This document shows positions 13,505 through 30,110 of a stretch of DNA of 64,000 nucleotides, one piece after another. Numbering within the stretch: the stretch's first letter is position 1; each line of letters begins with the position of its first letter. A model generated the notes under the pieces. It was given only the letters and a program-made list of their open reading frames with translations. It was not told the origin of the DNA and made no database searches. The position numbers were made by a program, and so were the translations under genes. The stretch comes from Acetobacteraceae bacterium (GTDB taxonomy: Bacteria > Pseudomonadota > Alphaproteobacteria > Acetobacterales > Acetobacteraceae). Where the stretch lies: assembly GCA_965198755.1 (NCBI GenBank), contig OZ240673.1:3145044-3209043 (forward strand), written 5' to 3'.

Positions 13505-13553
13505 GAAGCAAGCAAGGCCTTCTTTTTTGAAAAAAAGAAGCAAAAAACTTTTG
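13505..13553 (+). repeat. Palindromic element half copy E6 (GAAGC arm only)
   Basis: gaagcaagcaaggccttcttttttgaaaaaaagaagcaaaaaacttttg. Confidence 0.85.
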
Positions 13554-13567
13554 ATTTCTGGGCTTGG

Positions 13568-13596
13568 TTGACTTGCAGGGGTGCGCGGGGATAACA
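13568..13596 (+). promoter_or_regulatory. Probable sigma70-type promoter of tRNA-Met
   Basis: TTGACT-17 bp-ATAACA followed by a GC-rich discriminator. Confidence 0.5.
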
Positions 13597-13614: not shown

Positions 13615-13689
13615 GGCGACGTAGCTCAGCGGTAGAGCAGGGGAATCATAATCCCTTGGTCGGGTGTTCAAGTCACCCCGTCGCTACCA
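13615..13689 (+). tRNA. tRNA-Met(CAT), elongator type
   Basis: Cloverleaf: acceptor GGCGACG/CGTCGCT, anticodon loop ATCATAA, T-arm GGGTG-TTCAAGT-CACCC, encoded CCA. Confidence 0.93.
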
Positions 13690-13709: not shown

Positions 13710-13836
13710 AAGCAAGCAAGCGGTTCTTTTTTGAAAAGAGAACCAAAAACTTTGTTTCCTGGGTAGCCGCTGCCGGGGGTTGCGCGACAGCAGGGAAAGA
13801 GTTTTCGCCGCTATTTTCGGAAACGCATGCCTTGCC
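13710..13836 (-). repeat. Palindromic element E7 (right arm eroded)
   Basis: GAACC arm, CGCGACAG, degenerate right arm. Confidence 0.75.
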
Positions 13837-13947: not shown

Positions 13948-14421
13948 ATGAGGATACTCGCCGCCGGACTGCTTCTCGCATGCCTCGCCGTCCACCCGCA
14001 GCAGGCCGCAGCCACCACCGGCCTCGTCGTGCAGGGCGACAACGCCGGCTTCAAATACGTCCCCGCCCCCGCCTCCCTGCCCAAGGGCACCCAGGTCAGC
14101 AACCTGCTCGGCGACCCCTCCCAGCCCGGCCCCTTCGTGCTACGGCTGATCTTCCCGCCGTACACCGACATTAAGCCGCACACCCACTCCAAGCCGGAAA
14201 CCGTTACAATCCTGTCCGGCTCGATCTACCACGGGCACGGCGCCACGCTGGTCCGCGCGAACGGCACCGAGCTGACCGCCGGCGGCTTCGTCTACCTGCC
14301 GCAAGGCATGCCCCACTCGCTCTGGACCACGGACCAGCAGGCCGTGATCCAGGTTTCCGGCACCGGCCCGTTCGGCCTGCAATACGTCAACCCAGCCGAC
14401 GATCCGAGCCGCGCGAAGTAG
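13948..14421 (+). CDS. Secreted cupin domain protein (DUF4437-like)
   Basis: Signal peptide; PHTHSKPE and GMPHS cupin His motifs. Confidence 0.85.
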   Translation: MRILAAGLLLACLAVHPQQAAATTGLVVQGDNAGFKYVPAPASLPKGTQVSNLLGDPSQPGPFVLRLIFPPYTDIKPHTHSKPETVTILSGSIYHGHGATLVRANGTELTAGGFVYLPQGMPHSLWTTDQQAVIQVSGTGPFGLQYVNPADDPSRAK

Positions 14422-14945: not shown

Positions 14946-16439
14946 ATGAACGACCTCGCCGGCGTCGCCCAGGCCTTTCAGGACAGCCTGCCCCGCGGTG
15001 CCGAGGTGATCGTCTCGCGCATCGACAGCCTGGACCGCATCGGCGTCCCCGTGGTCCAGGCCGTGCTGCTGGGCCCCGACAGCCCTGCGCTGTCCGGCTA
15101 CGGCTACGGCGTGACCGAGCTGGAGGCACGCGTCGGCGCACTCGGCGAGCTGTGCGAGGAAGCCCATGTCGGCGCCACCATCGCCGCCGCCCCGCAGACC
15201 CTCGCCAGCTATGCAGCCCTGGCCGCGCGCCTGGGCGAACACGCGGTGCTCGACCCGCTGACGCTGTGCCTGCCGGCCGGCTCGGCCTACACGCCCGACA
15301 TGCCGCTCTCCTGGGTCGCCGGCCAGCGCTGGCCGGACGCAGCACCGGTGATGGTGCCGGCCGAGTGGGTGGCGGCGCACCCCTACCAGCTCGCCGCGCC
15401 GGCGCGGCTGATCACGCCCATCACCAACGGCCTGGGCGCCGGCTTCGACCTGCCACACGCTTTGGCGCACGCCTTGATGGAGCTGCTGCAGCGCGACGGC
15501 AACAGCCTCACCTACCGCGCGCTGGACCAGGGCGTGGTGGTCGACCTGCCGCAAGGCGCGCTCGGCGACGTCGACGACCTGCTGGCTCGCCTGCACGCGC
15601 TCGGCATCCGCCCGGTCGTCAAGCTGGCCGACACCAGCTTCGGACTCTCCAACCTCTATGTCATGGGCGATGATGACGGCCCGGCCCACTTCACCCTGCA
15701 GCTCAGCGCCTGCGGCGAGGCGTCCCATCCGGACCGCGCCCGGGCCCTGCGCAAGGCGCTGCTGGAATACATCGGCTCGCGCTCCCGCAAAGCGGCGACG
15801 CACGGTCCGGTGGAGACGGCGCGGCGCGTGCTGCCGCCGGCCTACCTGGCCCGCCTGCTCGCCGTCCCGCCGGCCGCCGAAGAGCCGCGCGCGCTGCAGG
15901 CGATGGCCGAGTGGCTGGGGCTGGACGCGGCAGCCTTGCGCCAGCTGCTGGCCGGCCCGGTGCAGCGCCGCACGCGCGGCATCTCGTTTGCCGACCTGCC
16001 CGACGCACCGGCGGCCGACGTCGCCACCTCCTCCGCCCGGCTCGACTATCTGGCGACCCGGCTGGCGGAAGCCGGGCTCGGCATCGTCTGGGTGGATTGC
16101 TCGCCGGCAGACGGGCCGGTGCGCGTGGTGCGCGCCATCGTGCCGGGACTGGAGAGCGAAACCATGAGCTACCACCGCCTCGGCCGGCGCGGGGTCGCCA
16201 GGCTGCGCGCCCGCCGCGACCCGCTGCTGCTCGACGCACCTCGCGACGGCGCCCTGCGCGTGCGCCTGCGCCCCGAGGACGAGGCAGCCTGCGGCGGGCC
16301 AGCCTGGTTCGACGCGGCACTCGCAGCACGGCTGACCGATCCGCTCTACCCGCTGTATCGTGAATGCGGGCCGTTCGCCGCACAGCGGCTGCTGGCCGGA
16401 AGCCGGCTTCATCGGGCGGATGCTGAAGCTGCGTGCTAG
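14946..16439 (+). CDS. YcaO-like protein (paralogue 1)
   Basis: LDRIGVP, GYG..E..EE, PITNGLGAG, HALMELLQRD, HPDRARALRKALLE, IVPGLE. Confidence 0.85.
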   Translation: MNDLAGVAQAFQDSLPRGAEVIVSRIDSLDRIGVPVVQAVLLGPDSPALSGYGYGVTELEARVGALGELCEEAHVGATIAAAPQTLASYAALAARLGEHAVLDPLTLCLPAGSAYTPDMPLSWVAGQRWPDAAPVMVPAEWVAAHPYQLAAPARLITPITNGLGAGFDLPHALAHALMELLQRDGNSLTYRALDQGVVVDLPQGALGDVDDLLARLHALGIRPVVKLADTSFGLSNLYVMGDDDGPAHFTLQLSACGEASHPDRARALRKALLEYIGSRSRKAATHGPVETARRVLPPAYLARLLAVPPAAEEPRALQAMAEWLGLDAAALRQLLAGPVQRRTRGISFADLPDAPAADVATSSARLDYLATRLAEAGLGIVWVDCSPADGPVRVVRAIVPGLESETMSYHRLGRRGVARLRARRDPLLLDAPRDGALRVRLRPEDEAACGGPAWFDAALAARLTDPLYPLYRECGPFAAQRLLAGSRLHRADAEAAC

Positions 16440-16468
16440 GGGCGTTCGGCTTGCAGTGGCTTCGACCA

Positions 16469-16620
16469 GGCAAGGCAAGCAGTTCTTTTTTGAAAAAAAG
16501 AACCAAAAAACTTTTGTCTCTCTCGGGTGTGCCGTGGTGAGACGCCTTGTTTCAGCCGTCCGCGACAGCGCGCCCAAAAGCTTTTTGCTTCTTTTTCTCG
16601 AAAAAGAAGGCGCTTGCTTT
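16469..16620 (-). repeat. Palindromic element E8
   Basis: Full copy with TGTTTCAGCCGTCCGCGACAG spacer. Confidence 0.95.
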
Positions 16621-16678
16621 CTACTGAGGCGGCGGTCGCAATTGAGAGCGTCTTTCGACTTGCCCGCCCAGTGCACCC

Positions 16679-18445
16679 ATGTCGCGTGACGTTCTGAAGC
16701 GCCCGCCGGCGCACGGCCAGGATGGTGCGGACGGACATCGTCGGCATCGTTCAGCCCATCCGGGTGAGCGCGAACTGGCCGAGCGTGTGGGCTTGCGCCG
16801 GGCCGTGCTGCTTGCGCTGATGCTGGGGGTGGCCGCTTGCCTCGTCTGGCTGGGCGCCGCCGTGCTGGCCCCAGGCGGCTGGACCGCCCTGAAGCTGGCG
16901 CTGCTGCTGTGCCTGGCAGCAAACGCGCCGTGGCTGGGCCTGTCGGCGGCAACTGGGCTGATCGGCTTCTGCGTGCGCATCGGCGCGCGCGACTCCGCCT
17001 GCGCGGTGTTCCCGGCGCTGCGCCTGGTGCGGCCGGACCAGGCGGTCACGTTGCGGACCGCAATCGCCGTCTGCGTGCGCGACGAGGCGGTTGCACCCGT
17101 TTTCGCCAGGCTGGCGCAACTCGGCGCCGATATCGACCATGCCGGGCTGTCCGGCCGCTTCTCGCTGTGCGTGCTGTCCGACACCGCAAGCGACGCGCTG
17201 GCGGAGTCGGAGACCCGCGAAGCCGCTTGCCTGCGCGCTGCGTGCGCCACGCCCGTTCTGTACCGCCGGCGTGCGGCCAACACCGGCTTCAAGGCCGGCA
17301 ACGTGATGTCCTTCCTGGACGAGCACGCGGGCGCCTTCGACCTGCTGGTCTGCCTGGACGCCGACAGCGAGATGACCGCACCCGCCATCCTGCGCCTGGT
17401 GCGGGTGATGCAGGCCGACCCGCGTCTGGCCATCGTGCAGGCCACCTTCCACGGCCAGCCGGCCAGCGCCCTGTTCCCCCGCCTATTCCAGTTCGGCCAG
17501 TTGCAGGGCCTGCGCATCTGGGCGGTGGGGCAGGCCTGGTGGCAGGCCGATAGCGGCCCTTACTGGGGGCACAACGCCGTCGTCCGCGTGGCACCGTTCC
17601 GTGCGCATTGCCGGCTATCCCCGTTGCCGGACGGTGCGGCCATCATGTCGCACGACCACGTGGAGGCCGCGCTGCTGCAGGGTGCCGGCTGGCGCCTGCG
17701 CGTGCTGGCCTGCGACGAGGGCTCGTCCGAAGCCCAGCCGCCGACGCTGCCCGACTACCTCGTCCGCGACCGCCGCTGGGCCGCCGGCAACCTGCAGTAT
17801 CGCTTCCTGCTGCGCCGGCGCGAACTCGGCCGTCTGGGCCGGCTGCAGATGCTTCAGGCAATCCTGCACTATGCGCTGACGCCACTGTGGTTCGCGATGC
17901 TGCCGTTGGCGGCGTTAAACGCCGCCACTGGGGGCGCGGCCCAACTCCGCTGGGGGCGCCTGCTGACCCTGCTGGCGTTCGGCTGGCTGACGCTGCACGC
18001 GCCCAAGCTGCTCGGCATGCTGGAACTGCTGTTGCGCCCCGCGGTCGCCTCGCGTTTTGGCGGCCGGGCTTGCGTGTTGCGCCTGGCCGCGTCCGAGCTG
18101 GTGTTCGCCCAGCTGTTCGATCCCATCATCGCGCTGCACAAGACAGCCGGCGTGCTGCGCCTGGCCGCCGGAGCACCCGGCAGCTGGACCGGGCAGACCC
18201 GCGACGAGCACGCGATCGGCTGGTCGCGCGCTGCAGGGATGTTCTGGCCGCATACGTTGGCGGGCATCGCGCTCGCGGCGGTGTTCGCGGCCGCATCACC
18301 TGCGGCATTGCTGGTTTGTCTGCCGGCGGTGGCGGGATTGATGCTCGCCATACCGTTTGCGGTGTTTTCATCGAAGCAAAGCAAGGCTCTCTTTTTCGAA
18401 AAAAAGAAGCAAAAAACGTTTGGCCGCGCTGTCGCGGACGGCTGA
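16679..18445 (+). CDS. mdoH: Glucan biosynthesis glucosyltransferase MdoH/OpgH-type (GT2); C-terminus derived from element E9
   Basis: GFKAGN, LDADSEM, YWGHNA, SHDHVEA, RDRRWAAGNLQY. Confidence 0.88.
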   Translation: MSRDVLKRPPAHGQDGADGHRRHRSAHPGERELAERVGLRRAVLLALMLGVAACLVWLGAAVLAPGGWTALKLALLLCLAANAPWLGLSAATGLIGFCVRIGARDSACAVFPALRLVRPDQAVTLRTAIAVCVRDEAVAPVFARLAQLGADIDHAGLSGRFSLCVLSDTASDALAESETREAACLRAACATPVLYRRRAANTGFKAGNVMSFLDEHAGAFDLLVCLDADSEMTAPAILRLVRVMQADPRLAIVQATFHGQPASALFPRLFQFGQLQGLRIWAVGQAWWQADSGPYWGHNAVVRVAPFRAHCRLSPLPDGAAIMSHDHVEAALLQGAGWRLRVLACDEGSSEAQPPTLPDYLVRDRRWAAGNLQYRFLLRRRELGRLGRLQMLQAILHYALTPLWFAMLPLAALNAATGGAAQLRWGRLLTLLAFGWLTLHAPKLLGMLELLLRPAVASRFGGRACVLRLAASELVFAQLFDPIIALHKTAGVLRLAAGAPGSWTGQTRDEHAIGWSRAAGMFWPHTLAGIALAAVFAAASPAALLVCLPAVAGLMLAIPFAVFSSKQSKALFFEKKKQKTFGRAVADG

Positions 18446-18512
18446 GACAGCCCGCAACCCAGAGAACAAAAGTCTTTTGCTTCTTTTTTTTCAAAAAAGA
18501 AGGCCTTGCCTT
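18374..18512 (+). repeat. Palindromic element E9, overlapping the mdoH 3' end
   Basis: Two GAAGC-type arms; mdoH stop lies in the spacer. Confidence 0.95.
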
Positions 18513-18625
18513 ACTTTACTAGCGTTTCCGTGAGCGGCAGCCTCCCGGGTTTACACCGCGATGCCGAACCCCATGTGGCCCACACCCGGGCGGTCGGCGT
18601 CCGGGCGGGTTAGGGATGAAAACGC

Positions 18626-19831
18626 ATGCCGGATTTGGGCGTCAGCGAGTCCAACGCAGGACGCCGCCTTGGCGTGCTCGTGGTCGGCGTGGGCGGCGCG
18701 GTCGCCACCACGGCGGTCGCCGGCATCGAGCTACTACGCCGTGGGTCGAACGACTTCGCCGGACTGCCGTTGGCCGACGCCGACGTGCCTGGCCTAGCCG
18801 CCTACCGCAACATGCATTTCGCCGGCTGGGACCTCAACGCCGACGACCTGAGCCACGCAGCCCAGGGCCACCGGGTGCTGGAAGCCGAGCAGGCGAGCCT
18901 GGTGGCCGGCGAGCTCTCGCGCATCCGGCCGTGGCCCGCCGTCGGCAGCACCGATTTTTGCGCCAACGTGGACGGCGCCAACAAGGTGGTCGCCGGCAGC
19001 CACCGCGGCGCCGTCGAGCGCATCCGTCAGGACATCCGCGACTACAAGCAATCCACCGGCATCAGCGACGTGGTGATGATCAACCTCGCCTCCGTGGAAC
19101 GCTGGCCGGCCGACACCGCCGTGCTGGAGGAGGTCGAAGCCTTCGAGCGCGGGCTGGACGACAACAACCCCTCGATCAGCCCGGCGATGCTGTACGCCTA
19201 CGCGTCGATCACCGAGGGCGTGCCCTACGGCAACTTCACCCCGAGCCTGGCCGCCGACATCCCCGCGCTGGTCGCACTCTCCGCCGAGCGCAACGTGCCG
19301 GTAGCCGGCAAGGACGGCAAGACGGGGCAGACGTTCCTCAAGACCGTGCTGGCGCCAGCGCTGCGCGCGCGCTCGCTGTTCGTGGAAGGCTGGTTCAGCA
19401 CCAACATCCTTGGAAACCGCGACGGCCTGGCGCTGGACAACGCCGCCAGCCTGCAGAGCAAGCTCGCCACCAAGGGGTCCGTGCTGGACAACATCCTCGG
19501 CTACAAGGTGGAAAACCACCTGGTGAACATCCAGTACTACAAGCCGCGCGGCGACAACAAGGAAGCCTGGGACAACATCGACATCGTCGGCTTCCTCGGC
19601 CAGAAGATGCAGATCAAGCTGAACTTCCTTTGCCGCGACAGCATCCTGGCCGCCCCGCTGGTGATCGAGATCGCCCGTGTCCTGGACCTCGCACGCCGCC
19701 GCGGCCATGGCGGCATCCAGGAGCAGCTCGGCCTGTTCTTCAAGGCGCCGATGACGCCGGCCGGGTGTCGCGAGGAGCACTCCTTCCCCGTGCAGCAGCA
19801 GGTCCTGCTCGACTGGCTGGTGGCCGCCTAG
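18626..19831 (+). CDS. ino1: Inositol-3-phosphate synthase
   Basis: Rossmann VVGVGGAVA, NFTPS, GKDGKTGQT, NILGNRDG, DNKEAWD, RDSILAAPL. Confidence 0.95.
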   Translation: MPDLGVSESNAGRRLGVLVVGVGGAVATTAVAGIELLRRGSNDFAGLPLADADVPGLAAYRNMHFAGWDLNADDLSHAAQGHRVLEAEQASLVAGELSRIRPWPAVGSTDFCANVDGANKVVAGSHRGAVERIRQDIRDYKQSTGISDVVMINLASVERWPADTAVLEEVEAFERGLDDNNPSISPAMLYAYASITEGVPYGNFTPSLAADIPALVALSAERNVPVAGKDGKTGQTFLKTVLAPALRARSLFVEGWFSTNILGNRDGLALDNAASLQSKLATKGSVLDNILGYKVENHLVNIQYYKPRGDNKEAWDNIDIVGFLGQKMQIKLNFLCRDSILAAPLVIEIARVLDLARRRGHGGIQEQLGLFFKAPMTPAGCREEHSFPVQQQVLLDWLVAA

Positions 19832-19845
19832 GCGCGGTCCGGCCG

Positions 19846-20901
19846 ATGGACAGCCTGCCACCGGTACGGTCAGCGGAGCCCGCCGACCTTGCCGGGATTG
19901 CCTCGCTGGCGGCCGAGCTGGCGACGCTGAAGCGCATCCGCGACGCGCGATCCCCCGAAAGCCTCGCCTCGCTGATGTTTCGGCGCGCCTGGGTAGCGCT
20001 TTGTGCCGGTGTGGCGGTGCGCGACGTGGCGCTGTCCGTCTCCGCCGAGGCGCTGGTCGCGCTTCGCTTGGGCGGCATTGACCGTGCGGTGCTGGTCACG
20101 TCCGGGCTATCGGCCGACGAGGCAGCCGAGGTGCAGACGGCCTCGTTCGACCAGGTGACTGGGAGTATCCTGGCCGGCCAGGATAGGGGTGCGACGGCCG
20201 CCAGCCTGGTCGACGAACTGCGTCGGCGCGTCGGTGGTGAGCAGAGTCGACCCGTCGCTACCGAGCAAGTTCAGCGCGTCCACGCCGAGGACGATCGGCA
20301 TCTCGGCGCCGGGCAAGATCAGCGCGGCGGCGCCGAGCAAGCTGCAGCGGCCCCTGTACCCGCCTTTGTCGAAGCGCTGATCCGCCAGCCGCGCGCCGGC
20401 GCCACCTGCCCCGGCAAGCCGCGCCTGATCCTGGAGCCGCCGGAGGGCCACGGCGACCACTGCCTCGCCGTCGCCGTGCTGGGCGTCGTGCTGTGCGCCG
20501 AGTACGGCGCCGACCCCGCGCCCGTATTCCTCGCCGGCCTCGCTCACCACCTGCACAACGCCACCCTGCCCGACGCCGGGTTCGCCGGCGAGGTGCTGCT
20601 CGGCACCCACCTGATCCCGGTCCTGCGCCGCCTGACCGACCAGGCCCTGGCCACCCTGCCGGCCGGGCTTGCCGCCCACACGCGCGACGCGCTCGCCCTG
20701 GCGGCCGATGCCGGGACGCCGGAGGGGCGCGCCTTCAACGCCGCCGACGTGATCGACCGCATCATGGAGGTGCGCCACTTCGCCGCCGTCGCCGGCTTCA
20801 CCGAGGCGCAGGCGACTGACGACATGGAGCTGGTCCACGCCGGCCCGCTGCAGGATTTCCACTACCAGGTGATGCGCCGCGCAGGGCTGCTACCGGCGTG
20901 A
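19846..20901 (+). CDS. HD-fold (YfbR-like) phosphohydrolase-type protein, apparently duplicated domain
   Basis: QPRAG...EGHGDHCLAVAV...AGLAHHLHNA...FNAADVIDR resembles HD-domain His/Asp spacing; N-half ELATLKRIRDA looks like a degenerate copy. Confidence 0.55.
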   Translation: MDSLPPVRSAEPADLAGIASLAAELATLKRIRDARSPESLASLMFRRAWVALCAGVAVRDVALSVSAEALVALRLGGIDRAVLVTSGLSADEAAEVQTASFDQVTGSILAGQDRGATAASLVDELRRRVGGEQSRPVATEQVQRVHAEDDRHLGAGQDQRGGAEQAAAAPVPAFVEALIRQPRAGATCPGKPRLILEPPEGHGDHCLAVAVLGVVLCAEYGADPAPVFLAGLAHHLHNATLPDAGFAGEVLLGTHLIPVLRRLTDQALATLPAGLAAHTRDALALAADAGTPEGRAFNAADVIDRIMEVRHFAAVAGFTEAQATDDMELVHAGPLQDFHYQVMRRAGLLPA

Positions 20902-22214
20902 CCAGCCCGCCCCCAAACCTGCGCAGCCCGGCAACCGGCGCCGTGCTCACCGCCGGACCGCACGACCTGCACGCCGCCGGCGAGCGCTGGCCGGTGGTGG
21001 ACGGCATCGCCTTCCTGCGCGCCGACCGCCGCGCGCTGGCCGACGCGGCACTGGCCGCGCTGGATGCCGGCGACGCCGAGACCGCCTGTGTCATCCTGCT
21101 GGCGGACCAGGACGGCTGGGCCAGCACGCCACCGCCGGACGAAGCCGCCCGCCGCTTCGCGGTGCGCGAGCGCGCCGCGCTCAGCTTCCGCGCCGCCATG
21201 GATGTGCTGGCGTTCGGGCCGGTGGCCACCTACTTCGCGCACCGCTGGTCCGACCCCACCTTCCTCTCCGGCCTGGCTTTGGCCGAGGCGCACTGGCACG
21301 CGCCGGACCGCATCGTCGAGCTGGCCTGCGGTGCCGGCCACTACCTGCGCGAGTTCGCCCGCGTGCGGCCGCAGGCCGAGATCACCGGCGGCGACCTGGT
21401 GTTCGCCAAGCTGTGGCTGGCGCGGCACTTCGTGGCACCGCAGGCAAAGCTGCTGTGCTTCGACGCGGCGCAGCCCTGGCCGTTACCGGACGCGTCGGCT
21501 GACCTCGTGTTCTGCCACGATGCTTTCTATTTTCTGCCGGATAAGCAGCGTGTGGCGGGGGAGATGCTGCGGGTGGCCGGCGGGCAGGAAGCAAGCGCTT
21601 CTTTTTCGAGAAAAAGAAGCAAAAAGCTTTTGTCTCGGCTATCGCGGACGGCTGAAACGACACGCCTTCCCAACGCGCACCCCCAGGAGCAAAAGTTTTT
21701 TGGTTCTTTTTTTCAAAAAAGAACTGCTTGCCTTGCTTCCGGCCGCATCCTCGTCGGACACGCCCACAACGCCGCCGTGGAAAACCTTTCCCACGGCGCG
21801 CCCCTGCTCCCCGAAGACTACGCAGCGCTATTTGGGCAGGCATTGCTGTACGACGACCGCGAACTGACCACCGCGCTCGCCGAAGCACGCGCCCCGCACC
21901 CGGCAGACGCCGCCAACCTGCAACAGGCGCCAGCCGTGGCGCTGGCGGCCGGTGCGGCTGCAGCCGACGTGCCACGCATGCTGACCGGCGGGCTGGCGAT
22001 GCCGCAGCCGGGGCGGCAGCTGATGCGCAACCCGCTCTATGCCGAAGGCGCGGGCACGTTGCGCTTCCCCTCGCCGCGCTACGAGGCGGAATATGCGTCC
22101 CTGGCCACCTATCGCCCAACCACCGACGCGCCCGCCCGCGCAGTGGCCGGCGACCCGGCGCTGGAGGGCGCCATCCGCCGGCGCGAGCTTCTCGACCTGC
22201 CGGCCGAATGGTGA
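20898..22214 (+). CDS. Class I SAM-dependent methyltransferase with Trm112-like N-terminus and a 52-aa in-frame element insertion
   Basis: LRSPATG...WPVVDGIAFL N-terminus; VELACGAGH motif I; GDL; FCHDAFYF; GTGA overlap with the upstream gene. Confidence 0.85.
   Translation: MTSPPPNLRSPATGAVLTAGPHDLHAAGERWPVVDGIAFLRADRRALADAALAALDAGDAETACVILLADQDGWASTPPPDEAARRFAVRERAALSFRAAMDVLAFGPVATYFAHRWSDPTFLSGLALAEAHWHAPDRIVELACGAGHYLREFARVRPQAEITGGDLVFAKLWLARHFVAPQAKLLCFDAAQPWPLPDASADLVFCHDAFYFLPDKQRVAGEMLRVAGGQEASASFSRKRSKKLLSRLSRTAETTRLPNAHPQEQKFFGSFFQKRTACLASGRILVGHAHNAAVENLSHGAPLLPEDYAALFGQALLYDDRELTTALAEARAPHPADAANLQQAPAVALAAGAAAADVPRMLTGGLAMPQPGRQLMRNPLYAEGAGTLRFPSPRYEAEYASLATYRPTTDAPARAVAGDPALEGAIRRRELLDLPAEW
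21587..21740 (+). repeat. Palindromic element E10, inserted in frame within the methyltransferase
   Basis: Terminal GGAAGCAAG...CTTGCTTCC; reading frame stays open across it. Confidence 0.95.
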
Positions 22215-23281
22215 GCACCGGCGCGCGCCTGGGCTGGGGCATTGCCGGGTGCGGCTGGGTGGCGCGCGACTACGCGGTGCCGGCCATCCGCAAGTCCTCC
22301 AACGGCACCCTGCTGGCGGTGCACGACCAATCCGACGCGGCGCTGGACCGGGCACGGCGGGAATTGGTCGGTGTCGCCTGCCACGCCAGCCTGGACGACT
22401 TTCTGGCTACGCCCGGCCTGCAGGCGGTCTACGTCGCCACGCCCAACCACGCCCACCGCGCGCTGGCCGAACGCGTCGCCGCCGCCGGCCTCGCCGTGCT
22501 GTGCGAGAAGCCGATGGCCACCACGCTGGCGGAGGCTACCCGCATGGTGCGTGCCTGCACCGATGCCGGGGTGCGCTACGCCACCGCCTTCGACCAGCGC
22601 TTCCACCCGGCGCATCGCCACCTGGCGCGCCTGGTGGCGGACGGCGCCATCGGGCGGCCGACCGCCATCCGCATCGTCTACGCCTGCTGGGTGGACGATT
22701 GTTGGGCGCCCGACGCGGTGAGCACCGACAACTGGCGCACCGACCCGGAGCGTGCCGGCGGCGGCGCGCTGTTCGACCTGGCGCCGCACGGGCTGGACCT
22801 CGCCGCGATGATCCTGGGCGAGCGCATCGAGGCCGTCGCCGCCATGGGCCAGTCGCGCGTGCACGGCTACGCCTCGCGCGGGGTGGAGGGGCGCGGCGTG
22901 GAAGATGGGGCGCTGCTGATGGCGCGCTCGGCCTCCGGCGTGCTGCTGCAGATGCACGTGGCCTACAACTGCCCGGAGACGCTGCCGCGCCGCCGGCTGG
23001 AAGTGCTGGGAACGGCGGGGCAGATCGTCGCTACGGACACGATGGGGCAGACGCCGGGCGGCACTTTGGTTTTAACGGATGCGGCGGACGGCGTGGCCCG
23101 TCAGGTGGACGTGCCGGACGCGGAGCGGGCGCCGTTTCTCGGCCAGATGGAGGCGTTTGCCGCCTGCGTGCTGGAGGGTGCGGCGTTTGCGTTCACACCG
23201 GAGCATGATTTGCACACGATGGCGCTTCTGGAGCGTGCGCAGGCAATGGTGGTGGCGACGTTAAAGCGACTGTTTGTCTGA
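22208..23281 (+). CDS. Gfo/Idh/MocA family NAD(P)-dependent oxidoreductase
   Basis: GIAGCGWVA, VATPNHAH, CEKPMA, GGGALFDLAPHGLD. Confidence 0.93.
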   Translation: MVSTGARLGWGIAGCGWVARDYAVPAIRKSSNGTLLAVHDQSDAALDRARRELVGVACHASLDDFLATPGLQAVYVATPNHAHRALAERVAAAGLAVLCEKPMATTLAEATRMVRACTDAGVRYATAFDQRFHPAHRHLARLVADGAIGRPTAIRIVYACWVDDCWAPDAVSTDNWRTDPERAGGGALFDLAPHGLDLAAMILGERIEAVAAMGQSRVHGYASRGVEGRGVEDGALLMARSASGVLLQMHVAYNCPETLPRRRLEVLGTAGQIVATDTMGQTPGGTLVLTDAADGVARQVDVPDAERAPFLGQMEAFAACVLEGAAFAFTPEHDLHTMALLERAQAMVVATLKRLFV

Positions 23282-23393
23282 AACAAAAGAAACAATGCCA
23301 CGTTCACTCCAAAATCCGGCAATCCAGTCCGTCGACTTGCGAGTCATGCTGATGACCTCCGGGCCATCCGCCGGCTTCTCAAGTGACGCCCGT

Positions 23394-23498
23394 AAAGAAA
23401 GCTATTGGTGGCGCTATCGCGGAGTTTCCGGCAGCGCGCGCCCAAGAGAACAAAAGTTTTTTGGTTCTTTTTTTCAAAAAAGAACCGCTTGCTTCCTT
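23394..23498 (+). repeat. Palindromic element E11 (left arm eroded)
   Basis: CTATCGCGGAGTTTCC spacer + intact GAACC arm. Confidence 0.85.
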
Positions 23499-23509
23499 CG
23501 GGTCAGTTC

Positions 23510-24334
23510 ATGCCCCTAACCCCCTTTGCCTGCAGCAACTGCGGCCACTGGCAGCGCTACTTCGCCACCCCGCCGCTCTGCCCTATCTGTTCCGACGTGC
23601 GCAACGATTTGCCGGAGGACGGCTGGGACTTTCGCACGCCGGAGCAGCTGATCCCCACGTTGCAGTTCCACTGGCGCGAGGCGATCCCCGGCGTGTGGGA
23701 GTTCTGGTCCACGCCGCGGTTCGGCCTGGACAGCCACGGCTGGCTGCTGTTGCACGAGTTGGGCAACGTCGCGTTCGAGGCAGCGCCGATCTACAACGAT
23801 GCCCAACTGGCGCAGATACGCGCGCTCGGCGGCATACGGTTTCTGGCGGCGTCGCATCCGCACGGTTACGGCGCGCTGTTCCAGTTGCAGGAGGTGTTCC
23901 AGCCGGAAGCGTTGCTGATCCAGAAGGACGACCTGGACTGGACCAAGGCGTTCCGGGTGACGCTGCCTTACGACGAGACGTTCGAGATCTATACAGGCCT
24001 GACCTTGCACCACGTTGGCGGCCACTATGCCGGGCAGGCGGTGTTGCACGACGCGGAGCGGCGCGCGGTGTTCGCCGGCGACAGCCTGAAGATCGATTTC
24101 GATGCGGCGGGCGAGGCGCAAGGCATTTCCTGCCACAAGGCTTACCACAAGCAGATCCCGCTCTCGCGCGACGAGGCGCGCCGTTACCGCAGCGTCTACG
24201 AGCGGCTGGACTTCACGTCGGTGTTCACCCCGTTCGAGATGGCGACCGACACCGGCACGGCGGCCGCAGTAGCGCTGCTCGACCAGGTGATCGAAGGCCC
24301 GCCGTCCACCAAGCCGATCCCGATCCGCCGATGA
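23510..24334 (+). CDS. MBL-fold metallo-hydrolase-like protein with N-terminal CxxC...CxxC Zn-ribbon
   Basis: CSNCG...CPICSD; ASHPHGYG; GGHYAG; FAGDS. Confidence 0.75.
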   Translation: MPLTPFACSNCGHWQRYFATPPLCPICSDVRNDLPEDGWDFRTPEQLIPTLQFHWREAIPGVWEFWSTPRFGLDSHGWLLLHELGNVAFEAAPIYNDAQLAQIRALGGIRFLAASHPHGYGALFQLQEVFQPEALLIQKDDLDWTKAFRVTLPYDETFEIYTGLTLHHVGGHYAGQAVLHDAERRAVFAGDSLKIDFDAAGEAQGISCHKAYHKQIPLSRDEARRYRSVYERLDFTSVFTPFEMATDTGTAAAVALLDQVIEGPPSTKPIPIRR

Positions 24335-25824
24335 CCCGCGCGATGCCCGAGGCCGCCCGCGCCTACCTCGATTCCATGCCGGCGGGGAGCGTGGACCTGT
24401 TCCCGCTGACCCCGCTGGACCGCACCGGCGTGCCCTGCTGGAACGCGGTGTTCCACGACGCGGCCGCGCAGGCCTGGGTGGGCGTCGCACCGCATGGCGT
24501 CGGCTACGGCAGCACCGACGATGAGGCGATCGTGGGGACCACCGGCGAGCTGGCCGAGGCCATCCACTCGGCGGCGGGCATCTGGCGGCTGGAGCGGCGG
24601 CGGGGCAGCACCACGGACCTGGTGCGCAGCCTGGGTGCCGACGCGGTGGCCGACCCGCTGACCCTGTGCCTGCCGGCCGGGTGCGCGGTGGATGCGGACA
24701 CCGCGCTGGAGTGGGTGCCGACGCGCCGCTACCGCGATGGCGCGACGGTCTGGCTGCCGATCGACATCGCGGCGTGTTCCTACGGCGACCTCTCGCCCGG
24801 CTACACGGCGTTCACCAGCCCGATCACCAACGGGCTGGGTGCAGGGCCGAGCCTGGACTTCGCCATCGGCCACGGGTTGTGCGAGCTGTTCCAGCGCGAC
24901 GGCAACGGGCTGGGCTTCCGCGCCATGGACCGCGGCATCCTGCTGGAGTTCGGCCCCGATTTTCCGCGCGACCCGCGCACCCGCGCGCTGCTGGCGCATC
25001 TGCGCAGTCTGGGCATCGAGGTGCTGGCCAAGTTCGCCGACGACGCGTTCGGCATCGCCAACGTCTACTGCGTCGGCGGCGAGACGGACCGGTCTGCCGC
25101 AGCACCCATCATGGTCACCGCCGCCGGCGAGGCCGCCTCGCCCGACCGCGAGCACGCGCTGCGCAAGGCGGTGCTGGAGTTCGCCGCCGCGCGCGCCCGC
25201 AAGGCGTTCAGCCACGGCGCGCTGGCCGAAGCCGCCCGCGTGGCGCCGGCGCGCTACCTCGAAAGTTTCCGCGCCCGCCAGACGCTGGACGGCGAGGAGG
25301 ACCGCACGATGGCGGCGATGCGCGACTGGCTCGGCCGCGACCAGGCCAGCCTGCGCGCCCTGCTGGCAGACAGCGCGCTGTCCCGCCGCGAGACCAAGCG
25401 CTTCGACGAGCTGCCGCAATGGGACGGCGCACTGTCCGGCACAGCGCTGGTAGCCGAACTGCACCGCCGCCTGGCCGCGCACGGGATGGACGTGCTGGTG
25501 CTGGACTACTCCCCGCCGGACCACCCGGACGTGCACGTGGTGAAAGTGGTGGTGCCAGGGCTGGAGGTAGAGACGATGAGCTATCACCGCATCGGCGAGC
25601 GTGGCGTGCGCAAGCTGCTGGACCGCGGATCGGACCTGGTGGGTTTCGGCCCGCCGCCGCCGGGCGCGCTGCCGGTGCGCCTGCCCGCCGGTGCGGCCGA
25701 GCGGCTGGGCGGCGTGCCGTGGCTCGACGTGGCCGGGGTGGACCGCATCGTGGGCCCGCTCTACCCGCTCTACCGCGAGCCCGAGGTGCACGCGGCGCAG
25801 ATTGCCCTGGAGGCGGTAGCGTGA
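24331..25824 (+). CDS. YcaO-like protein (paralogue 2)
   Basis: LDRTGVP, GVGYG, PITNGLGAG, HGLCELFQRD, RKAVLE, VVPGLE; ATGA overlap with the MBL gene. Confidence 0.85.
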   Translation: MTRAMPEAARAYLDSMPAGSVDLFPLTPLDRTGVPCWNAVFHDAAAQAWVGVAPHGVGYGSTDDEAIVGTTGELAEAIHSAAGIWRLERRRGSTTDLVRSLGADAVADPLTLCLPAGCAVDADTALEWVPTRRYRDGATVWLPIDIAACSYGDLSPGYTAFTSPITNGLGAGPSLDFAIGHGLCELFQRDGNGLGFRAMDRGILLEFGPDFPRDPRTRALLAHLRSLGIEVLAKFADDAFGIANVYCVGGETDRSAAAPIMVTAAGEAASPDREHALRKAVLEFAAARARKAFSHGALAEAARVAPARYLESFRARQTLDGEEDRTMAAMRDWLGRDQASLRALLADSALSRRETKRFDELPQWDGALSGTALVAELHRRLAAHGMDVLVLDYSPPDHPDVHVVKVVVPGLEVETMSYHRIGERGVRKLLDRGSDLVGFGPPPPGALPVRLPAGAAERLGGVPWLDVAGVDRIVGPLYPLYREPEVHAAQIALEAVA

Positions 25825-25854
25825 GGTTCGCCCGGCGGCCCGTGTTGACGAGTA

Positions 25855-25992
25855 GCAAGCAAGGCAAGCAGTTCTTTTTTGAAAAAAAGAACCAAAAAAC
25901 TTTTGTTCCCTTGGGTGCGCGTTGCAGGAAACTCCGCGACAGCAGGGATAAAAGTTTTTTGCTGCTTTTTTTCAAAAAAGCAGGCCTTCCCT
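25855..25992 (-). repeat. Palindromic element E12
   Basis: Full copy; right arm has compensatory GCTGC/GCAG variant. Confidence 0.95.
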
Positions 25993-26137
25993 TTCTTCTA
26001 GAGCATCAACCAACCTTACGGGGCTGCCCGTCGGATGCAGATGCTCGTCAACGGAGGGCGCTGCCGCGTTTTCCGGTCTGCTTGTCCAATTCAACGAGGT
26101 CAGAAAACACTCTAGCGTGTCGGCTTGCCGCGGAGGC

Positions 26138-26962
26138 ATGGGCTTGAGGTTCGCCTACAACACCAACGGCACCGCCAACCACCGGCTGGACGAGGCGATC
26201 GCGCTGATCGCCGACGCCGGCTACGACGGCGTGGCGCTGACTCTCGACATCCACCACCTCGACCCGTTCGCGGGCTTTCGCGCCGAGCTGCGCCGCGTCG
26301 CCGCTCTTCTGCGCGCCCATAGCCTAGGCTGCGTCATCGAGACCGGCGCGCGCTTCCTGCTCGACCCGCGGCAAAAGCACGAGCCTACCCTGGTGACCGC
26401 GGACAGTGAGGGCCGCGCGCGCCGCGTGGCTTTCCTGACCCGCGCGCTGGAAGCGGCCGCTGAGACCGGCGCCGAGGCGATGTCTTTCTGGGCCGGCGTG
26501 CCGAAACCGGGCGTGACCGCGGCGCAGGCGCGCGATTGGGTGGCCGAGGGCGCGGCCGAAATTGCCCGGCGTGCCGAACAGCTCGGGACTGTCGCCGCGC
26601 TTGAGCCGGAACCGGGCATGGCGATCGAGACCGCGGCAGACTGGCAGGCGCTGGCGATCCCCGGCCTGCGCCTGGCGCTGGACACCGGGCACTGCCTGGT
26701 CACCGGCGAGATGGACCCCGCGGACGCGGTGCGCCAGTACGCAAGCGACCTCGGCACCGTGTCGATCGAGGACATGGCGCGCGGCGTGCACGTGCATTTG
26801 CCGTTCGGCGAGGGGGACATGGACCTGCCTGGCGTGCTCGCGGCGTTGCATGAGGTGCGCTTCACCGGCCTGGTCTGCGTGGAGCTGTCGCGGGAGAGCC
26901 ACCGGGCGGACACGATGGTGCCGGGTGCGTTGGCGTGGCTGCGGGATCGGGTGGCGTCCTGA
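26138..26962 (+). CDS. Sugar phosphate isomerase/epimerase (AP endonuclease 2 TIM barrel)
   Basis: GGAGG RBS; AYNTNG, LEPEPGM, LDTGH, IEDM, HLPFGEGD, VELSR. Confidence 0.9.
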   Translation: MGLRFAYNTNGTANHRLDEAIALIADAGYDGVALTLDIHHLDPFAGFRAELRRVAALLRAHSLGCVIETGARFLLDPRQKHEPTLVTADSEGRARRVAFLTRALEAAAETGAEAMSFWAGVPKPGVTAAQARDWVAEGAAEIARRAEQLGTVAALEPEPGMAIETAADWQALAIPGLRLALDTGHCLVTGEMDPADAVRQYASDLGTVSIEDMARGVHVHLPFGEGDMDLPGVLAALHEVRFTGLVCVELSRESHRADTMVPGALAWLRDRVAS

Positions 26963-26966
26963 TGCG

Positions 26967-27100
26967 AAGCAAGACCTTCTTTTCTGAAGAAAAGAAGCAA
27001 AAGACTTTTGCTTCCGCTGTCGCGGACTCTCCCACGAGCGCGCGGCAGCGGAAACAAAAGTTTTTTGGTTCTTTTTTTCAAAAAAGAACTGCTTGCCTGC
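26967..27100 (+). repeat. Palindromic element E13
   Basis: Full copy between the TIM-barrel and GT4 genes. Confidence 0.95.
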
Positions 27101-27104
27101 CTTC

Positions 27105-28322
27105 ATGAGGATCTGTTTCGTCAGCCGCCGCTACTTCCCGGCGATCTCCGGCATGAGCGTCTACGCGCAGAACCTGCTCCGCGAACTCGCCAGCGCCGGC
27201 CACGACGTAACGATGATCAGCCAATACCGCGGCGACGATTACGGCCGCGCCGTCTACGGCGGCGGCCCGCCCCCCGCGGTGCCCGGCGTGCGCGTCTTCG
27301 GCCTGGAGCAGCTCGGCGAGCAGTCGACCGGCGACTTCGAGCGTGACGTCGCCGTGATGGTGGAGGCGATCTGCGCCGAACACACGCGCGCGCCGTTCGA
27401 CGTGCTGCACGCGCAATACGGCTACCCGACCGGCTGGGCGGTCATGCTGGCGGCCCGGCGGCTGGGGCTGCCGAGCGTGGTCTCCATCCAGGGCGGCGAC
27501 GGGCACTGGGTGGGCTCGTGTTGCGAGACGCACCGCCTGGCGATGATACGCGTGCTGGACCACGCGGGCGCGGTGCTGATCGGCTGCCGCTCGTTTGCAG
27601 AGGAGGTGTGCGGGCGGCTGGGCACCGATCCTGGACGCTTCACCATCGTGCCGGGCGCGGTGGAGACCGACCGATTCACCCCGGCCGCCCGGCCGGTGGG
27701 CGCCGCGCCGGTGCTGCTGTATCACGGCCGGATCGACGCGCGGAAAGGTGCGCTGGACCTGCTGGACGCGGCCAGGCTGCTCGCCGACGAGGGCGCGGCC
27801 TTTTCACTGGTGTATTCGGGCATCGGCCCGGATCACGGGCGCGTCGCGGCGCGCATCACCGAACTGGGCCTGGGCGGGCGCGTGCGGATGACCGGCTACG
27901 TCAACTACGCGGACGTGCCGGCGGTGTATCACCAGGCGGACGTGTTCGTTTCGCCCACCTATGCCGAGGGGTTCTCCAACACCATCCTCGAAGCGATGGC
28001 ATCCGGCCTGGCCTGCGTCTCCTGCCGCGTCGTGGGCGTCATGGACTGCCTGCGGGACGGCGAGAACGGGCTGCTGAACGAGCCGGGCGACATACCCGCC
28101 TTGGCCGCCTCGCTGCGCCGGCTGCTGGCTGAGCCGGACCTGCGGCGCCGGCTGGCGCAGGCGGGGCTGGAGGAGTGCCGGCGCCTCTACTCGTGGCCGG
28201 CGGTCGGGCGGCAGATCATGCAGGTCTACGCCGACACGGTGCGGCGAGCGCCGGACCTGGGCTTCTCCACCGAGCTGCCGATGACGCCGTGCCGTTTCCG
28301 GGCGGACCCGCACCTCCTGTGA
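27105..28322 (+). CDS. GT4 family glycosyltransferase
   Basis: HAQYG, GRIDARKG, EGFSNTILEAMASG. Confidence 0.93.
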   Translation: MRICFVSRRYFPAISGMSVYAQNLLRELASAGHDVTMISQYRGDDYGRAVYGGGPPPAVPGVRVFGLEQLGEQSTGDFERDVAVMVEAICAEHTRAPFDVLHAQYGYPTGWAVMLAARRLGLPSVVSIQGGDGHWVGSCCETHRLAMIRVLDHAGAVLIGCRSFAEEVCGRLGTDPGRFTIVPGAVETDRFTPAARPVGAAPVLLYHGRIDARKGALDLLDAARLLADEGAAFSLVYSGIGPDHGRVAARITELGLGGRVRMTGYVNYADVPAVYHQADVFVSPTYAEGFSNTILEAMASGLACVSCRVVGVMDCLRDGENGLLNEPGDIPALAASLRRLLAEPDLRRRLAQAGLEECRRLYSWPAVGRQIMQVYADTVRRAPDLGFSTELPMTPCRFRADPHLL

Positions 28323-29071
28323 CGCGCACGGCGCTGTTCCTCTCGCCGCACCTGGACGACGTAGTGTTTTCCTGCGGCGGCCTGGCCGCGGTGCTGCACG
28401 ACCGCGGCTGGCGCACGGTGCTGGCGACCGCGTTCACCGCGACCGTGACGCCCGTCACCGGCTTCGCGCTCGCCTGCCAGCTCGACAAGGGGTTGCCCGC
28501 GGAGACCGATTACATGGCCCTGCGCCGCGCCGAAGACCACGCGGCCGCGGCCATCCTTGGGTTCACCGACGTGCGCCACCTCGGCCTGCCCGAAGCACCG
28601 CATCGTGGTTACGACAGCGCGCGCGCCCTGTTCGGCGGCGTCCGCGACGACGACATCATCGTGCAGGCGCTCGCGGCACACCTGACGGCGCTGCAAAGCG
28701 AATTCGCGCCGAACCTTGTGCTGGCTCCACAGGGTTTGGGCAGCCACGTCGACCACCGGCAGGTGGTGCGCGCAATCACCGAAACGGTGGACGCGCCGCT
28801 CGCCTGGTACCGCGACACGCCTTACGCGATGCGCCACCAGGACGCGCCGCCGCCGCACGTGGCTCGGCTTGCGGAGATGCGGTTTCCGGTCGGCAGCGCG
28901 TTGGACCGCAAGCTGCGTGCCGCCTGCGCCTACGTCAGCCAAGTCGGTTTCCAGTTCGGCGGGCCCGAACAGACACAAACCGCATTGCGCGCGTTCGCTG
29001 CCGCTGAAGCCGGAGGTGGCGGGTTTGCAGAACGACTGGCCGTGTCGGTCGGGGCGGACGGTTCACTTTGA
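28319..29071 (+). CDS. PIG-L family deacetylase
   Basis: SPHLDDVVFSCGG, RRAED, SHVDH; GTGA overlap with GT4. Confidence 0.92.
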   Translation: MTRTALFLSPHLDDVVFSCGGLAAVLHDRGWRTVLATAFTATVTPVTGFALACQLDKGLPAETDYMALRRAEDHAAAAILGFTDVRHLGLPEAPHRGYDSARALFGGVRDDDIIVQALAAHLTALQSEFAPNLVLAPQGLGSHVDHRQVVRAITETVDAPLAWYRDTPYAMRHQDAPPPHVARLAEMRFPVGSALDRKLRAACAYVSQVGFQFGGPEQTQTALRAFAAAEAGGGGFAERLAVSVGADGSL

Positions 29072-29108
29072 GCCGGTTGGTTGGTTTGACTGTTTGTGTT
29101 GATCGGGG

Positions 29109-29156
29109 AGCAAGGTAAGCAGTTCTTTTTTGAAAAAAAGAACCAAAAAACTTTTG
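29109..29156 (-). repeat. Palindromic element half copy E14a (GAACC arm)
   Basis: gcaaggtaagcagttcttttttgaaaaaaagaaccaaaaaacttttg. Confidence 0.85.
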
Positions 29157-29415: not shown

Positions 29416-29445
29416 GTCACCGGTCGCGATCTCGCCCCACTGACG

Positions 29446-30075: not shown

Positions 30076-30110
30076 TACTCGCTAAAAAACAACCAAGCAT
30101 GCCCAGGCTC

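Follow-up and report, generated by a model that had tools for sequence, protein, structure and literature searches.

Our data suggest that the two YcaO genes found in a 64,000-nucleotide stretch of an Acetobacteraceae bacterium genome (assembly GCA_965198755.1, contig OZ240673.1, positions 3,145,044 to 3,209,043; the whole stretch is called the window here) belong to a subfamily that probably serves, one YcaO at a time, in a conserved set of some 10 genes for a glycoconjugate containing inositol and an amino sugar. In the reading that we favor, with reasonable though far from complete confidence, the pair in the window resulted from the combination of two gene modules, and these enzymes would catalyze the ATP-dependent activation of a carbonyl on a non-ribosomal substrate.

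The window, with a G+C content of about 68%, encodes two YcaO paralogs of 497 amino acids on the forward strand, as a preliminary description of the sequence had reported. YcaO1 (positions 14946 to 16439, ATG to stop) and YcaO2 (24331 to 25824) are both intact, with full-length matches to PF02624 (E values of 4e-49 and 5e-52; 168.1 and 177.6 bits against a gathering score of 25.7; model positions 2 to 325 of 325 covered), and they are 43% identical over 486 residues. That both have the same length is correct but carries no significance; since lengths in the family vary from about 483 to 533 amino acids, we regard it as coincidental. The mechanical open reading frame (ORF) of YcaO2 extends upstream to position 23383 (23383 to 25824, 813 amino acids). 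We take the ATG at 24331 to be the true start because the resulting length matches homologs (P0121 and the gene call in the related locus L007) and because this ATG overlaps by 4 nucleotides the stop codon of the preceding gene, read in a different frame. The 813-residue ORF was rejected as one gene, its 0.9 kb before 24331 being a high-GC run-on that overlaps, in a different frame, a metallo-β-lactamase (MBL)-like gene (23510 to 24334).

The number of YcaO copies in related loci carries much of the argument. A midpoint-rooted neighbor-joining tree splits the family cleanly into two sister clades that are about 43% identical, clade A with YcaO1 and clade B with YcaO2. Loci were retrieved by similarity to YcaO1 and YcaO2 and typed by tblastn with the window proteins; a few were fetched twice, so that the counts are approximate. 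Five architectures emerged, built from genes for a myo-inositol-phosphate synthase homolog (INO1), an HD phosphohydrolase (HD), a methyltransferase (MT), a Gfo/Idh/MocA oxidoreductase (GFO), the MBL-like protein, YcaO, a TIM barrel protein (TIM), a GT4 glycosyltransferase, a PIG-L family deacetylase (PIGL), and a GT2 glycosyltransferase. Type I, with 43 entries whose named members are of the Roseomonas, Belnapia, and Craurococcus group, has the order INO1-HD-MT-GFO-MBL-YcaO(A)-TIM-GT4-PIGL...GT2. Type II (36 entries) keeps this order but has YcaO(B) in the YcaO slot and ends with a GT2 that is only distantly related; the MBL-like gene is often missing. In type III (17 entries), the clade A gene sits at the end, as INO1-HD-MT-GFO-MBL-TIM-GT4-PIGL-YcaO(A)-GT2. 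Type IV, cupin-YcaO(A)-GT2-INO1-HD-MT-GFO-MBL-YcaO(B)-TIM-GT4-PIGL, comprises the window and the loci L007, L010, and L139. Type V (14 entries) consists of just a YcaO(A)-GT2 pair, with polysaccharide genes around it; standalone pairs of this kind were seen in L008, L009, L011 to L019, L021, L024, L045, L048, and L070.

In some 96 related loci whose context could be read, the cluster thus holds a single YcaO, of clade A or clade B, and both clades occur together only in the four type IV loci. Clusters around a single clade A gene come from Belnapia, Rhodopila, Craurococcus, Roseomonas, and others, and those around a single clade B gene come from Acidisphaera and many metagenome contigs. Except for type V, a conserved gene set, usually with overlapping stops and starts, flanks YcaO in every sufficiently long locus examined. 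Clades A and B are alternative occupants of the same role in the cluster. Since retrieval by similarity to both proteins favored two-copy relatives, the rarity of the latter is all the more telling.

These counts speak against the earlier proposal that the two paralogs function as a heterodimer or in consecutive steps, at least as a property of the family. An obligate pair would be present wherever the system occurs, and what we found is 43 plus 36 plus 17 entries with one YcaO against 4 with two. An obligate A:B heterodimer is unlikely because one YcaO is the rule across the sampled clusters. A narrower version, in which the paralogs cooperate in the window's lineage, either by forming a heterodimer or by taking successive ATP-dependent steps on one pathway intermediate, appears improbable to us but has several points in its favor. 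Neither copy is disrupted and purifying selection acts on both, the linked arrangement has been retained in four related genomes, and bottromycin biosynthesis offers a precedent in which two standalone YcaOs are used for two reactions. Furthermore, three differences fixed between the clades lie beside active-site motifs and could mean different specificities: position 72 is Glu in all clade A and Ala in all clade B sequences, position 167 is Phe, Leu, or Val in clade A and Pro in clade B, and position 277 is Gly in clade A and Ala in clade B. Against cooperation stand the roughly 96 sampled loci that run the cluster on one YcaO of either clade, and the fact that the clade A copy travels with GT2 rather than with the clade B copy.

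The relationships of the individual genes suggest how the pair in the window came about. YcaO1 forms a two-gene module with the gene downstream of it (16679 to 18445, forward strand), which encodes an OpgH/MdoH-like membrane GT2 glycosyltransferase (Pfam Glyco_trans_2_3; 405.8 bits to NF003962 MdoH against a cut-off of 328). In the neighbor-joining tree, YcaO1 is sister to the standalone YcaO(A)-GT2 pairs, and both YcaO1 and its GT2 are closest to these type V pairs (65% to 70% and 60% to 67%, respectively). YcaO2 is sister to clade B clusters that lack GT2 (L005), followed by ordinary type II clusters. Likewise, YcaO2 and the cyclitol genes around it are closest to clade B clusters without a downstream GT2 (L005, L136, and L138) and next closest to the type II clusters L090, L091, and L126. 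In the simplest scenario, a clade B cluster would have lost its own GT2 and, in the window's lineage, may now be served by the YcaO(A)-GT2 module directly upstream. The pair thus looks like a combination of modules, with a copy added in one lineage, and not like a machine that needs two enzymes, as far as these sequence relationships indicate.

In L139, an extra gene between GT2 and the inositol-phosphate synthase gene (7012 to 7836, reverse strand; 274 amino acids, no Pfam match) marks the junction of the YcaO(A)-GT2 module with the clade B cluster. Upstream of the window locus lie, on the reverse strand, genes for an HTH/Peptidase_M78/ScfRs-type regulator and an M28/PA/TFR-dimer peptidase (8835 to 10232 and 11186 to 13438). 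The same flank is found in L007, with fragmented gene calls, and in L139, and the two-copy lineage therefore shares one insertion context.

Both copies are under purifying selection, and neither is decaying. Comparisons of the window with L007 and L010 gave ratios of nonsynonymous to synonymous substitution (dN/dS) of 0.16 for YcaO(A) and 0.09 to 0.13 for YcaO(B), with similar values for neighboring genes, and the signature residues described below are all retained in both window copies. A pseudogene or decaying duplicate was ruled out on these grounds. A different possibility, to which we assign the lowest probability of those considered here, is that YcaO(A) arrived as a redundant passenger of a GT2 that replaced the lost GT2 of the cluster and now duplicates YcaO(B) without a new role. 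That one slot is filled by clade A in some genomes and by clade B in others and that the clade B clusters nearest to the window's lack GT2 (L005, L136, and L138) would be expected of a passenger. So would faster evolution of the module: amino acid identity to L007 is 90% for YcaO(A) and 84% for GT2, compared with 98% for both YcaO(B) and INO1, two genes of the clade B cluster. The dN/dS of 0.16, however, reflects continuing constraint on YcaO(A), every signature residue has been kept, and the conservation of YcaO(A) and GT2 as a unit away from the other cluster genes implies a role of its own with GT2. A lineage-specific division of labor between YcaO1 and YcaO2 is possible.

The second line of evidence for the favored reading, module combination around a sugar-directed YcaO, is the content of the cluster, all of which lies on the forward strand. 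In every architecture having the cluster, its first gene encodes the myo-inositol-phosphate synthase homolog (18626 to 19831 in the window; Pfam NAD_binding_5, E value of 8e-61, and Inos-1-P_synth, E value of 1e-31). It is followed by a conserved protein that is helical in its N-terminal domain and resembles YfbR/HDDC2 HD phosphohydrolases in its C-terminal half (19846 to 20901; weak Pfam HD match), a S-adenosylmethionine (SAM)-dependent methyltransferase (20898 to 22214; Pfam Methyltransf_11/25), and a NAD(P) oxidoreductase of the Gfo/Idh/MocA family, of the inositol or sugar dehydrogenase type (22208 to 23281, with the start ATG at 22208; Pfam GFO_IDH_MocA and C-terminal domains). The best NCBIfam matches of this oxidoreductase are xylose and inositol dehydrogenases, below cut-off. 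The MBL-like protein (23510 to 24334; 274 amino acids) carries an N-terminal CxxC...CPxC zinc-ribbon-like motif and a weakly supported MBL fold (Pfam Lactamase_B, E value of 4e-4, below the gathering score). Its gene is absent between GFO and YcaO in many clade B clusters (L090 to L096, L098, L099, L103, L105, L108, L109, L137, and others), and the protein is therefore dispensable for the pathway.

Downstream of YcaO2, which occupies the conserved YcaO slot, are a xylose isomerase-like TIM barrel protein (26117 to 26962; AP_endonuc_2, Pfam E value of 3e-35; weak NCBIfam matches of the IolO/IolE type), which is of the sugar or inosose isomerase, epimerase, or dehydratase type, and a GT4 glycosyltransferase distantly resembling MshA, BshA, and PIG-A (27093 to 28322; Pfam Glycos_transf_1 and Glyco_trans_4_4; 79.7 bits to NCBIfam MshA and 76.5 bits to BshA, both below cut-off). 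The last gene encodes a PIG-L family N-acetylglucosaminyl deacetylase similar to MshB and BshB (28319 to 29071; Pfam PIG-L, E value of 2e-16; weak NCBIfam BshB1/BshB2 matches). Thus, the context of these YcaOs is one of carbohydrate and cyclitol genes rather than one of peptides made by the ribosome and modified after translation (RiPPs), a point overlooked in the preliminary description.

In agreement with this context, searches for RiPP partners were negative. The Pfam matches of neighbors in 15 annotated loci included no TfuA, E1-like/Ocin-ThiF, or azoline dehydrogenase protein, and no TfuA family, whose gene usually but not always adjoins thioamide-forming YcaOs, was among the Pfam matches of the window neighbors. 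In search of a precursor peptide, we clustered the 4854 small ORFs lying between genes in the full set of loci; no family spanned the architectures or included the window, and the largest families were antisense shadows of conserved genes. The precursor expected beside amidine-forming YcaOs (bottromycin BotCD/PurCD, klebsazolicin KlpD, and streptamidine AmdY) was likewise not seen in this search.

A rival explanation holds that these are nonetheless peptide- or protein-modifying YcaOs, forming a backbone thioamide, azoline, or amidine on a substrate encoded elsewhere, and that the sugar genes are co-located for regulatory or unrelated reasons. We consider this unlikely, to about the same degree as cooperation of the two paralogs in the window's lineage. 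YcaO chemistry characterized so far is all on peptide or protein backbones, and the closest structure is that of the McrA-type MjYcaO. Escherichia coli YcaO (EcYcaO), which acts on uL16, and the archaeal McrA enzymes target distant substrates (PMC13063428). Yet in our loci, for both of the divergent clades and in numerous genera, YcaO is embedded in a sugar cluster, often with overlapping stop and start codons, we found no small ORF conserved across the loci, and neither TfuA nor an E1-like partner was found among the neighbor Pfam matches. The isoelectric points of the window pair, 5.7 and 5.4, differ from the 4.4 reported for EcYcaO (PMC13063428), and both proteins score below the cut-offs for thioamidation, TOMM, and EcYcaO-type families.

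These scores also bear on family placement. Against NCBIfam TIGR03266 (McrA thioamidation), YcaO1 and YcaO2 reached 98 and 61.9 bits, where the cut-off is 365; against TIGR03604 (TOMM SagD), 89.7 and 92.1 bits, where it is 219.25; and against TIGR00702 (YcaO-type kinase domain), 65.6 and 60.1 bits, where it is 75.65. An AlphaFold2 model of YcaO1 (predicted local distance difference test [pLDDT] of 91 and predicted template modeling score of 0.91, from a 24-sequence alignment) was compared with the PDB using Foldseek, and the top 41 matches were all YcaO proteins. The best neighbor was MjYcaO (E value of 4e-19, template modeling [TM] score of 0.80, 19% identity), followed by LynD, MkYcaO, MusD, TruD, EcYcaO, and McbD. 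MjYcaO was also the best PDB match by sequence, with E values of 1.6e-10 by phmmer and 4e-21 with a profile. By these sequence and fold comparisons, we place YcaO1 and YcaO2 inside the YcaO superfamily but outside all of its curated functional families. The earlier suggestion of a distinct YcaO subfamily is borne out in this respect, given scores below all three cut-offs, a nearest solved relative that is 19% identical, and motifs that are fixed throughout the family.

Public annotations name members of this family as a [quoted passage not shown] a [quoted passage not shown] or a "YcaO-related McrA-glycine thioamidation protein." These names are backed neither by the curated cut-offs nor by genomic context.

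Among the candidates scored, 1093 relatives were found at an E value of 1e-5 or lower with YcaO1 as the query, and 1811 were found with YcaO2. The named ones are Acetobacteraceae (Roseomonas, Belnapia, Craurococcus, Paracraurococcus, Rhodopila, Roseicella, Dankookia, and Acidisphaera). Across GTDB species, each sampled with a single genome, a scan yielded 346 loci, and the best 80 of these, closest to YcaO1, belong to Acetobacteraceae or Rhodospirillales, with the exception of one metagenome-assembled genome (MAG) labeled Janthinobacterium lividum. Lichen-associated MAGs are numerous among the same best 80. In everything sampled, the subfamily is thus almost confined to Acetobacteraceae. Full-text literature searches on YcaO combined with inositol, Acetobacteraceae, or non-peptidic and non-RiPP terms returned no description of the subfamily and no link to inositol.

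The third line of evidence, which concerns the ATP/Mg site, sets the family apart at the residue level. All of the motifs listed in the preliminary description are present in both proteins (GYG, GELCEE/GELAEA, PITNGLGAG, ELLQRD/ELFQRD, EYIGSR/EFAAAR, and VPGLExETMSYHR), and the departures from the canonical ATP/Mg motifs are shared by the pair. One of these was overstated: the replacement of ExxER by ELCEE/ELAEA removes the Arg, but both metal-binding Glu residues are retained. The absence of a Pro-rich C terminus was also correctly described, as neither protein ends in PxPxP (the C termini read ...YPLYRECGPFAAQRLL... and ...YPLYREPEVHAAQIALEAVA).

Residues were mapped with HMMER onto MjYcaO, LynD, TruD, MusD, and MkYcaO and with hhalign onto E. 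coli YcaO (MG1655); the latter alignment was weak overall (probability of 19%), but its motif registers agree with those of the HMMER alignments. Of the EcYcaO residues that we take to be its ATP-binding set, E75, E78, E199, R203, E290, and R295 are kept, as Glu68, Glu71, Glu179, Arg183, Glu274, and Arg279. In the family, K61 is replaced by Tyr54, S71 by Gly64, S184 by Gly164, E202 by Gln182, R286 by Lys270, and Q293 by Gly or Ala. Two further positions differ between the clades, R79 being Glu in clade A and Ala in clade B, and N187 being Phe, Leu, or Val in clade A and Pro in clade B. The clearest departure is at E202, where every solved YcaO that aligns has Glu and the family has Gln. Thus, among the canonical Glu ligands E75, E78, E199, and E202, three are kept and the fourth is fixed as Gln.

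Among 128 distinct family sequences extracted from the related loci, G64, E68, E71, E179, Q182, R183, D184, K270, E274, and R279 are invariant (128/128), Tyr54 is present in 127, and a C-terminal YPLYRE is nearly invariant. On this sequence evidence, we regard the shared altered motifs as a family signature rather than a product of chance.

Comparisons with known systems further delimit the subfamily. The archaeal YcaOs for McrA-glycine thioamidation (Methanocaldococcus jannaschii MJ1094, PDB 6PE3/6PEU; Methanopyrus kandleri, PDB 6CI7/6CIB) are the best match in sequence and fold and share the standalone minimal domain, to which neither an E1-like domain is fused nor a Pro-rich C terminus added. 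The family differs from MjYcaO, to which it is only 19% identical, in lacking a TfuA neighbor, in the change from GKG to GYG, in having Gln for the second Glu of ExxERD, and in being extended at the C terminus by about 90 further conserved amino acids ending in YPLYRE. Its setting is one of carbohydrate genes in Alphaproteobacteria and not of methanogenesis. E. coli YcaO (PDB 4Q84 to 4Q86) has the same fold and ATP/Mg framework and likewise no adjacent precursor peptide gene; it has been assigned to the thioamidation of uL16 Met82 (PMC13063428). At 586 amino acids, however, it has a long C-terminal domain that the 497-residue pair lacks, and its E202 corresponds to Gln here.

With the azoline-forming cyclodehydratases (SagD, BalhD, McbD, LynD, and TruD), the family shares the YcaO domain with the PxxNG and (V)PG(L/M) motifs in register, but in the loci examined we saw no PxPxP, no E1-like/Ocin-ThiF partner or fusion, no dehydrogenase, and no Cys/Ser/Thr-rich precursor ORF. 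Bottromycin clusters contain two standalone YcaOs, one forming a thiazoline and the other a macroamidine, and in this sense resemble the window in having two partnerless paralogs in one cluster. They also encode a precursor peptide, radical SAM methyltransferases, and a P450, none of which is present here, and most relatives of the window locus have one YcaO.

The closest analogy for the surrounding genes lies in the early steps of mycothiol, bacillithiol, and glycosylphosphatidylinositol (GPI) synthesis, which involve Ino1, a GT4 enzyme (MshA, BshA, or PIG-A), and a deacetylase (MshB, BshB, or PIG-L). Inositol-phosphate synthase, GT4, PIG-L, and phosphohydrolase genes co-occur in our cluster as well. 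In contrast to mycothiol and bacillithiol systems, equivalog scores are far below the cut-offs, there is no MshC/BshC-type ligase, and the host is alphaproteobacterial. Dehydrogenase, TIM barrel, methyltransferase, YcaO, and OpgH-like GT2 genes are extra here relative to all three pathways.

Considering these data, we propose a working model for the subfamily. YcaO enzymes use ATP to O-phosphorylate the tetrahedral oxyanion derived from a carbonyl, and the phosphate is then lost. To our knowledge, the known ones are homodimers. By analogy, each YcaO of the family would bind ATP/Mg through its modified site, with three canonical Glu residues and Gln as the fourth, and would O-phosphorylate a carbonyl-derived oxyanion, resulting in replacement of the oxygen. 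The inositol-phosphate synthase, GT4, HD phosphohydrolase, and PIG-L proteins may together make an N-acetylglucosamine (GlcNAc)-inositol, or its phosphate, and convert it to a glucosamine (GlcN)-inositol core, while the dehydrogenase, TIM barrel protein, and methyltransferase would tailor the cyclitol. The likeliest YcaO substrate would be an intermediate of the GlcNAc-inositol type, modified at its acetamido group, or else an amide on which the GlcN amine freed by PIG-L makes its attack. The product would be an amidine, an oxazoline, or a similar group on the amino sugar/cyclitol conjugate, a guess we make because the acetamido group is the sole amide predicted from the gene set and because the deacetylase exposes an amine nucleophile. 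The tight pairing of YcaO(A) with GT2 suggests that the function of YcaO(A) is tied to that of GT2 and that it may act on the substrate or product of this partner.

This opens the way for a bolder reading, which we regard as a real possibility while leaning against it. In this scenario, the subfamily would be the first YcaO clade with a carbohydrate or cyclitol as its native substrate and with a Mg/ATP site retuned by Gln, and in the lineage of the window each clade would have a different amide as its target, the cyclitol genes being linked to one and the OpgH-like GT2 to the other. The reaction might be, for example, conversion of the acetamido group of a GlcNAc-inositol pseudodisaccharide to an amidine or oxazoline or coupling of the GlcN amine to an amide. 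All characterized YcaO chemistry that we know of, comprising azolines, thioamides, amidines, and a peptidase activity, is on ribosomal peptides or proteins.

Several points weigh against the favored model. First, the carbohydrate-amide substrate is drawn from the gene neighborhood alone. Second, YcaO(A)-GT2 pairs also occur far from inositol genes, and the substrate of YcaO(A) may be unrelated to inositol. Third, the substrates of EcYcaO- and McrA-type enzymes are encoded far away, so that not finding a peptide gene close by proves little. Fourth, if genomes with a standalone YcaO(A)-GT2 pair always carry a clade B cluster elsewhere, a two-YcaO system would be more common than the linked loci suggest. 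Assembly ERZ25067493 holds both L009 and L136, at contig coverages of 25x and 5x, and assembly GCA_030012885.1 holds L008 and L137, with contig numbers in the thousands; both look metagenome-scale. Finally, the change from Glu to Gln falls where an Ala variant impairs EcYcaO, E202A being the variant used to disable that enzyme in a 2026 study of uL16 thioamidation (PMC13063428). ATP use by the family is assumed by analogy.

Nearly every intergenic gap of the locus is filled by an AT-rich palindromic repeat with the core CAAAAGTTTTTTGGTTCTTTTTTTCAAAAAAGAAC, usually as inverted pairs of about 150 nucleotides; the core has 24 matches in the window, where 0 are expected. About 11 copies, of repeat families D1 to D4 and in inverted pairs, lie at the locus (13506 to 13586, 13710 to 13762, 16469 to 16633, 18375 to 18526, 21585 to 21748, 23398 to 23509, 25847 to 26008, 26963 to 27113, 29097 to 29161, 29313 to 29425, and 29925 to 30089). 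The repeat looks like a miniature inverted-repeat transposable element or a repetitive extragenic palindromic-type element. Copies bound the YcaO1-GT2 module and could therefore have mediated its arrival. The last 70 or so nucleotides of the GT2 ORF (18375 to 18445) lie within one copy, so that the C-terminal tail of GT2 is repeat encoded and may differ from the ancestral tail. Another copy (21585 to 21748) is in frame within the methyltransferase gene and adds about 52 residues just after the SAM-binding domain. This insert is missing from the ortholog in L005, and the gene calls in L007 (441 amino acids) and L139 (431 amino acids) are similarly long.

The HD domain protein gave an AlphaFold2 model with a pLDDT of 80 and Foldseek matches to HD domain proteins at a probability of 1.0 (TM scores of 0.64 to 0.70), and it is named a "YfbR-like HD superfamily hydrolase" in a JGI source. 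Between its helical and HD domains is a low-complexity insert (about residues 134 to 166; pLDDT below 50), which is lineage specific, the L005 ortholog being without it. An ORF spanning 18616 to 20901 (761 amino acids) was rejected as one gene, being a high-GC run-on whose first 1.2 kb or so lies over INO1 in another frame; only the stretch from 19846 to 20901 is the HD domain gene. At the upstream edge of the locus, a tRNA-Met (13615 to 13689, forward strand; ARAGORN, and 66 bits to Rfam tRNA) has copies of the palindromic repeat on either side. Next to it is a gene for a small cupin protein with a signal peptide-like N terminus (13948 to 14421, forward strand; Pfam Cupin_2/Cupin_7), which is retained upstream of YcaO(A) in the two-copy relatives L007, L010, and L139; whether it is part of the system is uncertain. 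Between 13000 and 30500, Rfam returned only the tRNA and sub-threshold hairpins, which are explained by the palindromic repeat copies, and no riboswitch; a promoter and terminator scan gave nothing above shuffled expectation.

In genome mining, a YcaO gene is treated as a flag for RiPPs, and one survey took up a YcaO-encoding biosynthetic gene cluster of Roseomonas mucosa in its discussion of RiPP clusters and of azol(in)e-peptide chemistry (PMC8776678). The large and sharply defined subfamily described here is built into a conserved inositol/amino sugar cluster in many Acetobacteraceae, numerous lichen-associated MAGs among them. For annotation, the lesson is that genes of this family should be labeled neither as RiPP cyclodehydratases nor as "S12 methylthiotransferase accessory factor." Nature has also run an experiment on the ATP site of YcaO here, fixing Gln in place of Glu at a canonical metal ligand position. 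If a sugar amide is indeed the substrate, ATP-dependent amide activation would extend into carbohydrate metabolism, and a new glycoconjugate containing inositol would be implied for these bacteria.

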